NCBI GenBank assembly: GCA_965223505.1
Contig: CBDCWP010000034.1
Coordinates: forward strand, 128,001 to 192,000
Direction of reading: 5' to 3'
DNA: 64,000 bases
From: Planctomycetota bacterium
GTDB lineage: Bacteria; Planctomycetota; PLA2; JAEUHO01
In this document: in pieces, positions 35,475 to 62,805 of the stretch
Layout: the number at the start of each line of letters is the position of its first letter
Position numbering within the stretch: the stretch's first letter is position 1
The notes under the pieces: model-generated
Seen by the model: the letters and a program-made list of their open reading frames with translations, nothing else
Told to the model about the DNA's origin: nothing
Databases searched by the model: none
Position numbers and translations under genes: made by a program

Positions 35475-35571
35475 GCGGGCGACGCAGGGCGGCGCGCTGC
35501 GTCGTCGGCGTCGTCGTTGCGTGGCAGACCACGCGGCCTCCTAGCCTCCTTGCATCGCATCCACCCTGCGC

Positions 35572-35711
35572 CGCCCGCGGCGAACAAGGTGAAGCGGCAC
35601 GCGACGAAACAGATCGCTTGAAGCGTACGAACGAGCCTTACGCGCCCGCGGCGAACAGGGTGGAGCGGCACGCGACGATACAGTTTGTTCAACACGTTGA
35701 ACGAGCCTTAC
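35572..35711. repeat. Degenerate tandem duplication of about 70 bp
   Basis: CGCCCGCGGCGAACA(A/G)GGTG(A/G)AGCGGCACGCGACGA(A/T)ACAG, then 15-16 variable nt, then GAACGAGCCTTAC, at 35572-35641 and 35643-35711. Confidence 0.85.
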
Positions 35712-35720
35712 CATTCGCGC

Positions 35721-36284
35721 ATGAAGCGAACGCATCTCGTGCTCATGGTCGCAGCCCTGTTGATGGGAGGCTGCTCGTCCGGCGGGACTGGTGGAAAGGC
35801 GCCCTCGGCAGGGTCGGATACGGGTAGATCGACGAGCGATCCGCGCGTCAAGAGCTTCAAGGGGCAGCCGGCACCGGCGCTCTCGGCCGACGGACGCATG
35901 GCCAGCGCGAACGCGCCCGCCGGACTCGACGGGTTCAAAGGGCGAACCGTGTTCCTCATGTTCGCTTTCCCGCGGTGACCCGCCTGCCGGGCCATGATGC
36001 CCCACCTGGTCAGGTGGCAAGAAACGTACCGCTCCGAAGGCCTCGACATCGTCTACGTCGACGACGGCCGGCGCGACTCGCTCGTCTCCGCACAAGAGAT
36101 GGCGCGCAACAACCCCTTCACCGTCTTCCATGACACCTCCGGCGCGTCGAATCAGACGTACGGGATTCGCGCGTATCCGACCGCCTACATCCTCGACCGG
36201 AACGGCAACGTCATCTGGGAAGGCATCCCCGTCTTCAACACCTTCACCACTGAGGTGGCGATCCTCGCCGCGCTCGCCCGGTAG
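35721..36284 (+). CDS. TlpA/redoxin-family lipoprotein selenoprotein (U-P-A-C); in-frame TGA at 35976-35978 read as Sec
   Basis: Lipobox LMGGC; GQPAP..L, FKGRTVFLMFAFPR-TGA-PACRAMMPHL and YGIRAYPTAYILDRNG (cis-Pro loop). The two ORF-track fragments are in frame. Confidence 0.85.
35998..36019 (+). promoter_or_regulatory. Putative bacterial SECIS hairpin
   Basis: CCACCT (36002-36007) pairs with AGGTGG (36012-36017), loop GGTC, extended by TG/CA; the loop is 29 nt after the TGA. Confidence 0.6.
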
Positions 36285-36368
36285 GGGATGGGATAGGGGG
36301 TGGCAGCCCTGATCCTCGGTCGTGCCAAGTGTGTTTACGGCATCAGCCGAGGAAGGAACTGCCACCCC

Positions 36369-37415
36369 ATGACTGCGTACCACGTCGGAATCGACCTGCA
36401 CAAGAGTGTCGCCCAAATCTGCGTCCGTGATGCGAAGGGCGAGATCGAAGAGGAGCGGCGGTGGCGCCTGCCGGATCGAAAGGCGGCCGCGGCGCTGGTT
36501 GCGTTTCTTGGCACCTACGGCGGCGGGCGCTTCGCGGTGGAAGCGTTGGGCTGCAACCGCTGGTTCGTGCTGGCCTGCCGCGAAGCGGGTTTGGAGATGC
36601 TTGTGGTGGACGCCACGAAGCTCGATCTGAAGAAGCAGGGCAAGAAGACGGATCGACGCGACGCCCAGGAGATCTCGCGCCGGCTGTACCTTGGCGACCT
36701 GGACCGCTACGCACTGACCTACTTCGCCACCGAAGCCGAGTTCGGCCAGCGCAAGGTGTTGCGGGTTCGGCATCAGCTCGTTCAGCATCGAACCAGCGTG
36801 CTGGCGCACATCCGCGGCATGCTCAACGCGTACCTGCTGCGAGCGCCGGTGACGCAGCTGTACACCAAGCGCGGGATCCAGTGGCTTCGCGAGCAGCGAC
36901 TGGGTGATGAGAACCAGGATCTGGCGCTGCAGTCGCTGGTGGATGTCGTTGCGGCTCTGCAGGAGCGCATCGAGAAGCTCACCGCTCGAATCCGCGAGTT
37001 GGCCGAGCAGGACGAAGTCTCAGGCTGGATCGTTCGGAATCTGCCACAGGCGGGAGCCCAGACGGCTCTGACGCTTCAAGCTGAGTTGGGTGACGCAACC
37101 CGCTTCCGCGGTGCTCGACAGATCTCGAGCTATGGGGGTGTCGTTCCACGCGTTTCGGCCTCGGCGGATCGAGCGCACCACGGCCGCATGACCAAACGCG
37201 GAAACGCCGAGTTGCGTTGGGTGCTGGGGCAATGGGCGGTTCGGTTGCTGGCCTTCGACCCAGAGGTGAAGGCGTGGGCACAGCCGATGCTCAGGCGCAT
37301 GCACCGCAACAAGGTTCGAATGGCGCTTGCACGCCGGCTACTGGTGGGCGTGTGGGTGATGTTCTCGCGTGGCGAGGTGTTCTCGCTGCGTCGGTGCCTA
37401 GGCCAGGCTGCCTGA
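36369..37415 (+). CDS. IS110-family transposase/recombinase (DEDD RuvC-like + Transposase_20)
   Basis: HVGIDLHK, AVEA and KTDRRDA (DEDD); AELGDATRF, YGGVVPRVSAS and GRMTKRGNAELRWVL. Confidence 0.93.
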   Translation: MTAYHVGIDLHKSVAQICVRDAKGEIEEERRWRLPDRKAAAALVAFLGTYGGGRFAVEALGCNRWFVLACREAGLEMLVVDATKLDLKKQGKKTDRRDAQEISRRLYLGDLDRYALTYFATEAEFGQRKVLRVRHQLVQHRTSVLAHIRGMLNAYLLRAPVTQLYTKRGIQWLREQRLGDENQDLALQSLVDVVAALQERIEKLTARIRELAEQDEVSGWIVRNLPQAGAQTALTLQAELGDATRFRGARQISSYGGVVPRVSASADRAHHGRMTKRGNAELRWVLGQWAVRLLAFDPEVKAWAQPMLRRMHRNKVRMALARRLLVGVWVMFSRGEVFSLRRCLGQAA

Positions 37416-37625
37416 GCGAACGCACTGAGAGAGAGGAAGCGAAACCAGGAATCGGACACCAACGGGCGCGTACTCCGGCGGGCCGCTGAGCGCATCAGCT
37501 CGTGTAGGCGATTGAGAGGCGCGTCCGACTCCCCCTCATGACGCCGCCCGAATAGGCGAGCTCGAAAACCCGAGTGGACGGATCCGACCCTGGCGACGCG
37601 GAAAGGACGCACGGCCGACAGAAAA
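37416..37625 (+). ncRNA. Candidate bridge/seek RNA encoded in the 3' non-coding end of the IS
   Basis: Long non-coding stretch after the transposase with nested stems (AGCTCG 37497-37502 / CGAGCT 37557-37562; GGCG/CGCC; TGAG.GG/CC.CTCA) and short matches to the target and donor. Boundaries are uncertain. Confidence 0.55.
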
Positions 37626-37646
37626 GGGCTTGCCATTCCCTAAACC

Positions 37647-37710
37647 GGCGACCCTTGTGGTCGCCCAATCGGCCCGTCCCTGATCGAGCGGCCACGAGGG
37701 CCGCCCCGAC
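37647..37710. repeat. Remainder of the interrupted REP plus its inverted partner (REPIN-like doublet)
   Basis: GGCGACCCTTGTGGTCGCCC at 37647-37666 and GAGCGGCCACGAGGGCCGCCCCGAC at 37686-37710. Confidence 0.8.
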
Positions 37711-37723
37711 ATCGACCGCCGAT

Positions 37724-38407
37724 TCACGACCGCGGCCGCAGGACCTGTTGCCGGCGCTTGAACCAGAACGGAACGTACAGCAGTGCGTAGAGCACGACCG
37801 ATAGCGCCTCGGCAACGAGGATGTAGTACGGCCACGGTCCGAAGTAGTCGAGCGGCGTCGCCGAATCAGGCTTCTCGCGCAAGAACATGTAGTTCGTGTC
37901 CGCCATCCAATTGACGCCCGCCATCACCAACGCCACGACGTTGACCGCCACGAGCGCACGCCAGACCGCCCCCGGCCGCGGTGGCAGCCCGAAACGGAAC
38001 GCGACGCCCACCGCGGCCACCGTCAAGGCGCCGTGCTTCACGAAGTAGGCGATCACGACCAGCAGATCGCGATGGTCCGGCAGGTCGGGCGTGACGATCG
38101 CGAGAAACGCGCCCGACGCGCCCCACAGGTAGGTGAGCTCGGCCATGAGCCGGTTGCGCGTCAGCAACGCGGCGATCGCAACGCCGACGCTGATGTCGCA
38201 CAGCGCCAACGGCGCCGCAGGACGCCAATCGCCGCCGTTCAGCAGGAACTCGCCGACCGACTCGACCGCGACGCCGAAGACGAGCAACAGTGTGATCACC
38301 CAACGCAGCGGCGTCTCCGGCAGGAACGACGCCCGGACCAAGAACACCGACGCCGCGGCGACGATCGCGACGATGACGCCGATCTCCGACGCGCCGACAT
38401 CGGGCAT
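37724..38407 (-). CDS. YwaF/TMEM164-like integral membrane protein
   Basis: PLALCD, TYLWG..GA..A..TPD, YFVKH and TNYMFLREKP...LDYFGPWPYYI motifs. The longer ORF-track extension is a shadow of fusA. Start uncertain. Confidence 0.85.
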   Translation of the reverse strand: MPDVGASEIGVIVAIVAAASVFLVRASFLPETPLRWVITLLLVFGVAVESVGEFLLNGGDWRPAAPLALCDISVGVAIAALLTRNRLMAELTYLWGASGAFLAIVTPDLPDHRDLLVVIAYFVKHGALTVAAVGVAFRFGLPPRPGAVWRALVAVNVVALVMAGVNWMADTNYMFLREKPDSATPLDYFGPWPYYILVAEALSVVLYALLYVPFWFKRRQQVLRPRS

Positions 38408-38575
38408 CGGCCTCAAGCCCCGTCGATCGCTGCGAGTCCACGGCTGTCTTGCATGGCGTCTCCCGAGGACGCCTAGCATACGATCCGCGCTGACGCTCAG
38501 ATCCGGGATTGGGGCGCCGGAAATCCGCCGTATCCTCGTCGCGCCGCCATGCCGGCGGGTCGGACGGACTGCCCC

Positions 38576-61605: not shown

Positions 61606-62715
61606 ATGGCCTTCTCGGACCACGACCACGCGACGATGGCGCGCGCCATCGCCCTCGCGCGCAAGGGGCGCTTCGCCGTCGAGCCGAACCCGCCGGTCGG
61701 CTGCGTCATCGAGCAGGATCAAACGGTCGTGGGGGAGGGCTGGCACAAGGGCTACGCGGGTCCGCACGCGGAGATCGAGGCGCTGACGCTCGCCGGCGAG
61801 AGTGCGCATGGCGCGACGGCGTACGTGTCGCTCGAGCCCTGCAATCACGACGGGAAGACGCCGCCGTGCGTCGATGCGCTGATCGCCGCGAAGGTGGAGC
61901 GTGTCGTCTACGGAACGCGCGATCCGAACCCGGAAGCGGCCGATGGCATCGAACGCCTGGTCGCGGCCGGCATCCAGGTCGACGGCCCGCTGCTCGAAGC
62001 GGACGCGCGCGCTCTGCTTGCCCGGTTCGTAGCGTCCCTGGAGTCGGCGCGCCCTTGGATCATCGGCAAGTGGGCCATGTCGCTGGACGGCTCCATCGCG
62101 CCGCGGCGCGGTGGCGGGGGCGCGATCTCGGGACGGCGCGCGCAACTCGTCACCCACGATCTGCGCGGGCGGGTGGACGCGATCGCGGTCGGCATCGGAA
62201 CCGTGCTCGCGGACGATCCGTTGCTCACCTGTCGTCTGGAAGGTGGTCCGGCGGGCGGTGCGCAGCCGATGCGCGTCGTGTTCGACCCGCTCTTGCACAC
62301 GCCGCTGTCGGCGCGCCTGGTGCGCGACGCGCGCTCATCGAGCGTCGTGATCGTCTGCGGAGAGCGCGTCGACGACGCGCGCCGCGACGCGCTCGAAGCC
62401 GCCGGCTGCGAGACCTGGGTGATGGCCGTCGACGATGACGCGCTCGACCTGGATGCCGTCACGCGCGCGCTTCGAACGCGGGGCGTGAGACGGATGTTGG
62501 TGGAGGGTGGCGCGCGCATTCACGGTGCGTTCCTCCGCGCCGGGCTCGTGGATCAGGTGACGGCGTTCGTCGCGCCCCGCATCCTGGGCGGCATCGAGGC
62601 GGTTCCGGCGGTCGTGGACAGTGGATTCGACGACCTAGAGTCCGCGCCCGTGCTCGAAGAGGTGATGTGGCGCAAGGTCGGCGACGACCTGATGTTGCAG
62701 GGGTACGTGCCGTAG
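61606..62715 (+). CDS. ribD: Riboflavin biosynthesis deaminase/reductase
   Basis: PNPPVGC, HAE, LEPCNHDGKTPPC, SLDG, GTVLADDP and VEGG motifs. Confidence 0.96.
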   Translation: MAFSDHDHATMARAIALARKGRFAVEPNPPVGCVIEQDQTVVGEGWHKGYAGPHAEIEALTLAGESAHGATAYVSLEPCNHDGKTPPCVDALIAAKVERVVYGTRDPNPEAADGIERLVAAGIQVDGPLLEADARALLARFVASLESARPWIIGKWAMSLDGSIAPRRGGGGAISGRRAQLVTHDLRGRVDAIAVGIGTVLADDPLLTCRLEGGPAGGAQPMRVVFDPLLHTPLSARLVRDARSSSVVIVCGERVDDARRDALEAAGCETWVMAVDDDALDLDAVTRALRTRGVRRMLVEGGARIHGAFLRAGLVDQVTAFVAPRILGGIEAVPAVVDSGFDDLESAPVLEEVMWRKVGDDLMLQGYVP

Positions 62716-62805
62716 GGGCAGCCCTTGTGGCTGCCCGATTGGGCGACCACGAGGGTCGCCCCTACATCCTGATCGTGATTGGGCGACCACGAGGGTCGCT
62801 CCTAC
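62712..62805. repeat. Cluster of three GTAG-family REP palindromes (REPIN/BIME-like)
   Basis: GTAGGGGCAGCCCTTGTGGCTGCCC (62712-62736); inverted copies GGGCGACCACGAGGGTCGC(C/T)CCTAC at 62741-62765 and 62781-62805. Confidence 0.88.

Follow-up and report, generated by a model that had tools for sequence, protein, structure and literature searches.

What directs a mobile element to one fixed position inside a short repeat is the question raised by a 64,000-nt stretch of planctomycete DNA (hereafter the window), which covers positions 128001-192000 of contig C34 (CBDCWP010000034.1) in an assembly of 5.15 Mb, 44 contigs and 67.4% G+C. An insertion sequence (IS) in this window interrupts a repetitive extragenic palindromic (REP) sequence, a short, abundant, palindromic (CGACC...GGTCG) and largely intergenic repeat that often occurs in inverted pairs. 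We consider it highly probable that this is an autonomous IS1111-type element of the IS110 family, which carries a DEDD/Ser recombinase and, in its 3' end, a two-loop seekRNA/bridge RNA. Judged from the sequence, specificity lies in this guide RNA, which an earlier note on the same DNA had not located, and in kind the element is an ordinary REP-seeking insertion sequence and no new kind. Its ends and its target are as follows.

36281..36287, + strand: left REP half GTAGG with the left GG (36286-87); reads GTAGGGG, alike at all 5 left junctions
36288..37646, + strand: body of the insertion sequence, 1359 bp; four full-length genome matches
36288..36293, + strand: left terminal extension ATGGGA, 6 nt, outside the inverted repeat; AnGGyA in relatives
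36294..36309, + strand: left sub-terminal inverted repeat, 6 nt inside the end; overlaps a -10-like GATAGG (36292-97)
37626..37642, + strand: right sub-terminal inverted repeat, 4 nt inside the end; holds a -35-like TTGCCA (37630-35)
37643..37646, + strand: right terminal extension AACC, 4 nt, read from the sequence
37647..37670, + strand: right GG (37647-48) and the remaining REP with its palindrome CGACC...GGTCG, from junction comparison
62737..62765, - strand: intact REP of the same class, serving by sequence match as model of the empty site

The sequence after the right GG (37647-48) is CGACCCTTGTGGTCGCCCAATC, and deletion of 36288-37646 together with one GG rebuilds a REP, which matches the reverse complement of 62737-62765 at 28 of 29 positions, exactly as the earlier note had claimed for this insertion. 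The GG at both junctions and the sub-terminal inverted repeats lying 6 and 4 nt inside the ends, also described there, were found again, with 14 of 17 positions agreeing between 36294-36309 and 37626-37642 and one gap, and the arms of these repeats co-vary among relatives (for example 14/16 in L018, L019, L022 and L060). Four full-length copies are present in the genome, three identical and the one at C44:79600 with one left-end substitution, while a fifth copy on C40 (G000:C40:226626-227208; L005, L006) is rearranged and truncated. The earlier note had proposed checking that other copies agree with this one in their ends and in their REP site, and they do: left junctions read GTAGGGG followed by ATGGGA in 5/5 copies, and right junctions read AAACC followed by GGCGAyCC...GTGGTCGCCCAA in 4/4 full copies. 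Only GG is common to both junctions of the element, with no further duplication at any of the five left and four right junctions at this one REP position. The four insertions use one REP position and one orientation, and because the flanks past the REP are unrelated among the four copies, they represent separate insertions and not a duplicated segment. In run X2, possibly the source of the assembly itself, contig depth reaches 33-34 over the element versus 6-7 on the flanks, a roughly 5-fold difference that fits about five copies.

The rearranged copy on C40 consists of IS bases 1-396 followed by bases 561-748 in inverted orientation, placed between GTAGGGG and its reverse complement. GCGCCGG words are present in the IS beside both internal breakpoints, and the joint is also found in contigs of two runs (loose end at 36851). 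The copy may have arisen through off-target recombination catalysed by the enzyme that the element encodes.

The gene that occupies most of the element, and the site of its presumed nucleophile, are located at these positions.

36369..37415, + strand: recombinase gene, 348 aa plus stop, with an N-terminal DEDD RuvC-like and a C-terminal Tnp domain
37161..37166, + strand: Ser265-Ala266 codons; Ser aligned with the IS621 catalytic Ser, Ala in place of the usual Gly

Pfam domains PF01548 (E = 5e-11) and PF02371 (E = 2.8e-19) are recognized in the recombinase, which also scores 181.5 bits against a cut-off of 140 with the NF033542 equivalog (NCBIfam "IS110 family RNA-guided transposase"), and in an alignment of 33 clade sequences the residues D9, E58, D95, D98 and S265 do not vary. 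The earlier description of an intact IS110-family element with IS1111-type anatomy is upheld. Among solved structures, with the alignment limited to the C-terminal domain, the matches are IS621 and ISCro4 (E ~2e-5; 2.3e-5 for IS621), and in the alignment to 8wt6, which spans the C-terminal 124 residues only, S265 coincides with the serine of the IS621 ESG motif, in agreement with the position at which the earlier note had placed the Ser-Ala pair. In IS621, S241 makes the 5'-phosphoserine link and its neighbour G242 hydrogen-bonds D102 (PMC11208158/PMC11208160). The best unnamed relative is 79% identical in protein sequence and homologues are 346-351 aa long, while the nearest named proteins among those compared by tblastn are ISHvo10 (33% identity over 97% of the query) and IS4321/IS5075 (~24% over 96%). 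Relatives within the clade lie mostly on 1-2-kb metagenome contigs, and a relative at E <= 1e-40 occurs in 4/400 other sampled genomes of the phylum. The planctomycete host suspected in the earlier note agrees with the host ribosomal protein S7, whose named relatives at 77-81% identity are Planctomycetota.

A new specificity class had been proposed in the same note on the strength of the GG core and the Ser-Ala motif, and this proposal was not supported. The motif reads G-V-V-P-RVSA-S-A in the present element, and among 121 aligned clade proteins (the 120 best of 562 matches at E <= 1e-30, plus the query) 115 carry Ser-Ala and 6 Ser-Gly, hence Ser-Ala is a signature of the clade and not a peculiarity of a single element. 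The treatment of the motif in PMC11187229 gives SG, TG and occasionally TA for IS1111 transposases, with no mention of Ser-Ala in that part of the source. Nor does GG lend support to such a class, as cores already differ in the accounts of known elements, being CT in IS621 and AG in ISPpu9, and the dinucleotide at the right junction varies in relatives of the present element (GG in 11/22).

The non-coding ends of the element are unequal, with 81 nt upstream of the gene (36288-36368) vs 231 nt downstream (37416-37646), and it is the downstream end in which a conserved RNA fold was recognized by comparison of 56 loci at 45-64% protein identity (2 assembled-genome contigs, 4 other genomes of the phylum and 50 metagenomes). 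A complete gene end with at least 225 nt downstream is available for 45 of these 56, giving 46 aligned rows including the query and, after removal of duplicates, 44 distinct sequences over the stretch equal to 37444-37600; loci L068-L097 (22-29% identity) were excluded from all RNA analyses as too distant. The fold comprises the following parts.

37452..37587, + strand: seekRNA/bridge RNA core, 136 nt, with a fold conserved in 44 sequences
37452-57 with 37582-87, + strand: outer stem, enclosing two modules
37467-75 with 37516-23, + strand: stem S1 of module 1
37488-91 with 37498-501, + strand: hairpin 1
37525-27 with 37575-77, + strand: stem of module 2
37539-45 with 37557-64, + strand: hairpin 2

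Each of the two similar modules is built of a stem, an internal loop and a hairpin. Compensatory changes were reported by RNAalifold in 14/20 pairs over the 44 sequences, 88.4% of cells are paired compared to 29.1-41.5% after a shift of the 3' partners by 1-3 columns, the covariation score is 0.433 versus at most 0.105 for shifted partners, and both sides have changed in 20/27 pairs. The scored structure consists of the RNAalifold pairs with the outer stem and one hairpin pair added by eye, and its derivation from the same alignment favours it in these comparisons; the outer stem is the weakest helix, with 67% paired. Because G-U pairs are frequent (for example 35/44 and 41/44), the RNA fits the + strand only. 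All four full copies carry an identical RNA.

The internal loops hold the segments that would read the target and the donor DNA.

37480..37487, + strand: right target guide GGGCCGCU, complement of the GG+CGACCC top strand apart from one C-A mismatch, the outer G forming a G-U pair
37504..37510, + strand: left target guide GTAGG (37504-08) with conserved CG (37509-10), identical in sense to the 5 nt that precede the GG
37566..37572, + strand: left donor guide AAACC (37566-70) with conserved CG (37571-72), equal to the last 5 nt of the IS (37642-46)
37528..37538, + strand: candidate right donor guide (5' side of loop 2), which would pair with GG and the IS left end

Three of these segments follow the DNA that they would read from locus to locus. 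For the right target guide, the first seven columns match the right flank at 230/273 positions in 39 unique loci (permuted mean 170.0, standard deviation 5.1, maximum 191), and 0/5000 permutations reach 230 in this test, which takes the best match within a 38-nt window at the right end. Fourteen loci match at 7/7, 13 at 6, 6 at 5 and 6 at 4, and the good matches begin 10-13 nt into that 38-nt window, mostly at 10 or 11, immediately past the IS end; the off-position 6/7 match of L010 is probably due to chance. The left target guide, which lies in loop 1 before a conserved CGA, is identical to the left flank at 102/125 positions in 25 unique pairs obtained from 31 loci with a recognisable left junction (permuted mean 37.9, standard deviation 5.8, maximum 64; 0/20000 permutations reach 102), with 8 pairs at 5/5, 11 at 4/5 and 6 at 3/5. 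The left donor guide, placed in loop 2 before the second conserved CGA, agrees at 158/180 positions in 36 unique loci that were not selected by donor match (permuted mean 124.8, standard deviation 3.7; 0/20000 reach 158), and it changes together with the IS right end, as in AGACC, ACAGG, ATAAG and AAGGA. The element thus displays the trait of a seekRNA/bridge RNA, namely an internal loop with one side matching each strand of the target, and of its two guides the top-strand complement (right target guide, 37480-87) comes first, 5' of the left target guide (37504-08). One further word, CGACCCT at 37585-91, retrieved by exact-word search of the 3' end, was rejected as a guide, as it combines CCGA, which is conserved as part of the outer stem, with a chance match.

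The genome itself provides many potential targets, and exact 13-mer counts over its whole length distinguish three main classes of REP that start with GTAGGGG: CAGCCC with 130 occurrences, CGACCC with 92 (the 13-mer GTAGGGGCGACCC in the 5.15-Mb genome) and CGGGGC with 20. All occupied sites belong to the CGAyCC class (CGACCC three, CGATCC one), and the commoner CAGCCC class (130 vs 92) holds none of the four insertions, which would come about in some 3 of 100 cases if hits fell on the two largest classes according to their abundance. Inverted REP partners adjoin three of the four insertion sites and are also found at 62711-62800. More generally, CGACC- and CAGCC-class REPs occur in inverted pairs or clusters that resemble BIMEs/REPINs (62711-62800; flanks of L001, L003 and L004), and in many cases the GTAG of the REP and the stop codon of the gene before it overlap, for example at 36282-84 and 62713-15. 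An inverted REP-like copy of the CGGCC class, starting with GTCGG and not GTAGG, is located at 37680-37715, ~30 nt past the interrupted REP on its right side.

Several observations weigh against an RNA-guided and mobile element. When folded alone, the whole 3' end is not more stable than shuffled sequence (z = +0.88), and hence the fold rests on co-variation instead; no Rfam family was found on 35500-38500 at E <= 1 apart from a chance microRNA match outside the element. The right donor guide is weak, with 148/225 positions paired versus a permuted mean of 140.7 and 137/20000 permutations reaching this value, it pairs at 5/9 positions only in the present element, and a mutual-information scan for it gave no clean diagonal. 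The right target guide, GGGCCGC(U), is the perfect complement of CGGCCC; at each of the four occupied sites it makes a C-A mismatch, with a second mismatch at the CGATCC site, and the 4 perfectly matching GTAGGGGCGGCCC sites in the genome are all unoccupied. Opposite the GG of the DNA, the left target and left donor guides carry CG and the right target guide carries CU, hence the outer G is not Watson-Crick matched. A simple scan of the linear element returned 0 sigma-70-like promoters. Finally, neither a circle junction nor an empty site nor any joint was present in the assembled contigs, which were what was searched, of 4 runs from 2 samples of 1 study that is possibly the source of the assembly.

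The mismatches are what would be expected if the REP were chosen mainly by the protein or by the hairpin structure of the REP, with the RNA adding little. The empty state of the perfectly matching REP variant and the insertion point within the 5' arm of the REP palindrome can be read in the same way, and in ISPpu10 the target stem-loop is described as a second layer of specificity (10.64898/2026.03.19.712850). However, guides track flanks position by position across relatives with unrelated targets, and a fixed preference of protein or structure would not yield such a pattern. We therefore regard selection mainly by protein or hairpin as improbable and retain recognition through the guide RNA, beside which REP structure may act as a second layer of specificity.

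The missing circle junction and empty site, and the rearranged and truncated fifth copy, might also mean that an earlier burst left these copies behind as relics and that the element has ceased to move. Against this stand the identity of three copies over 1359 bp with a fourth differing by one base, a full-length frame that falls within the 346-351 aa range of its homologues, the retention of all catalytic residues, and an RNA without any difference among the four copies. We give the relic explanation little credence, and these features argue on sequence grounds that the element is intact and recently active.

With respect to the core, the dinucleotide at the left junction in relatives is GG in 23 and CG in 2 of 25 unique pairs, and at the right junction (n=22) it is GG in 11, CG in 5, TG in 2, GA in 2, GC in 1 and AG in 1. 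Where the target dinucleotide is CG (L021, L029, L042, L019), the CG of the guide matches it. "GG core" is hence right for the present genome, and across the family it seems to be chiefly the inner G that is fixed. A tentative extension, which we put forward as a possibility that may well prove wrong, is that the element represents a large, unnamed and deep-branching IS1111-like subfamily, marked by Ser-Ala, a 12-bp spacing of the repeats and left guides with an invariant C-G versus G-G in the DNA. If true, Watson-Crick pairing would not read the outer core position and the check would be confined to the inner G, a core rule looser than that of IS621, which would fit a right dinucleotide that varies and a left one that is almost always GG.

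Movement would proceed by a pathway modelled on IS621 and ISEc11, beginning with excision as a circle in which 37646 is joined to 36288 through one GG. This would place the right-end -35-like hexamer 17 nt from the left-end -10-like hexamer, and in the modelled circle TTGCCA (37630-35) indeed lies 17 nt from GATAGG (36292-97). The pattern TTGnnn, 16-18 nt, [T/G]AT[A/G][G/A]n is found in 15/22 modelled junctions, with a spacer of 17 nt in 14 and 18 nt in one, and CATAGA is at the same place in 4 of the other 7. A junction promoter is reported for ISEc11 (PMC11187229) and for further members of the family, and by analogy the present element would have one as well. In the RNA-bound recombinase, loop 1 would pair with the REP, with the left side (bottom strand) read by GTAGG and the right side (top strand) by GGGCCGC(U), and loop 2 would pair with the circle junction. 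Strand exchange at GG would then take place via a Ser265 phosphoserine and a Holliday junction, with nothing duplicated beyond the common GG.

Two neighbourhoods in this genome contain further features. Upstream of the element, the gene at 35685-36284 (+ strand) encodes a lipoprotein-like redoxin whose TAG stop codon (36282-84) lies inside the REP. Its reading frame consists of two open pieces in one frame, separated by a single TGA at 35976-35978 in the place of the first Cys of a CxxC motif (U-P-A-C), and when read through it matches Redoxin and AhpC-TSA across nearly the whole length; selA and selB are present in the genome above curated cut-offs, and this redoxin is probably a selenoprotein. 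Elsewhere in the genome, a second and unrelated IS110-family element occurs as a single copy at G000:C30:203719-204711 (L098 1480-2529), with a 349-aa Ser-Gly protein, a 3' non-coding end and sub-terminal repeats of ~16 nt (15/16 match), and it is not matched by the protein of the first element at E <= 1e-3. The 327-aa open reading frame beside it (L098 2845-3828, - strand) matches the IS200-like Y1_Tnp domain at 28.1 bits vs a cut-off of 23, and it could be the REP-associated tyrosine transposase responsible for REP dispersal in this genome.

Recombinases of the bridge/seekRNA type are sought as programmable DNA-insertion tools, and to our knowledge few IS1111-type systems have a mapped guide RNA. 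The present locus with its ~45 relatives forms a natural data set with a 136-nt RNA core and three guide segments with coordinates, and a single genome offers a rebuilt target, about a hundred natural variants of it and four insertions that tolerate a defined mismatch. With such a data set, the rules that guides follow in a high-GC planctomycete clade can be tested directly.

As regards family placement, the defining IS110-family traits seen here are the DEDD RuvC-like and Tnp domains, the catalytic D/E/D/D and Ser residues, and site-specific insertion sharing a short core, and the circular double-stranded intermediate of the family is predicted. The IS1111-group traits that are present are the sub-terminal inverted repeats, the longer 3' non-coding end and the guide order, since IS1111-type seekRNAs carry the complement of the top strand 5' to the match of the bottom strand (PMC11187229). 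Two traits of that group are not matched: the motif is SA and not SG, TG or TA, and the extensions of 6 and 4 nt with GG give 12 bp between the repeats, not 10, the left-hand terminal extension of IS1111 members being described as 7 (or 6) nt long and the right-hand one as 3 nt (PMC11187229). These two departures, together with identities of only ~24% to IS4321/IS5075 and 33% to ISHvo10, could be taken to place the element in the IS110 group proper, among the minority with a 3' non-coding region, and outside the IS1111 group. We think this placement unlikely, given sub-terminal repeats of 16-17 nt that co-vary in relatives, the combination of a long 3' end, a short 5' end and the IS1111 guide order, and alignments that extend over 96-97% with IS4321/IS5075/ISHvo10 whereas IS621 aligns over the C-terminal 124 residues only.

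Taken as a probable member of the IS1111 group, the element resembles ISEc11, ISKpn4 and ISPa11 (PMC11187229) in its sub-terminal repeats with short asymmetric extensions, a long non-coding region 3' of the gene, a transposase of ~330-350 aa, the seekRNA strand order and site-specific insertion with no added bases, as these are set out in that source, and it resembles ISEc11 also in the junction promoter, reported there and predicted here. It is unlike these three in having Ser-Ala and extensions of 6 and 4 nt with GG in place of 7 and 3, and it shows only ~24-33% protein identity to the named IS1111 members among those compared. A second RNA loop matching the IS right end is present here, whereas the sections of PMC11187229 on the short seekRNAs describe none. 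Targeting of REPs has long been known in the IS110 family from IS621, ISPpu9 and ISPpu10, according to the accounts cited below. With IS621 (PMC11208160, PMC11208158) the element shares DEDD and Ser chemistry, a REP target, a 2-nt shared core, and a two-loop RNA in which left guides have top-strand sense and right guides, of which the donor one is tentative here, are complementary to the top strand; IS621 further has a circular intermediate with a junction promoter, a likeness that for the present element is a model. Unlike in IS621, the RNA lies 3' of the gene and the guide order is reversed, the core is GG and not CT, and long sub-terminal repeats are present, which IS621 as described in those sources lacks. 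ISPpu9 and ISPpu10 of Pseudomonas putida (PMC12288879; 10.64898/2026.03.19.712850) are similar in having several copies, each at one REP position, but are described as members of the IS110 group lacking sub-terminal repeats, and belong to another host phylum with another REP sequence; the core of ISPpu9 is given as AG (PMC12288879) in contrast to GG here. The closest named protein is that of the archaeal ISHvo10 (Haloferax volcanii, NC_013966.1), which according to PMC11187229 is more diverged and has long non-coding regions on each side.

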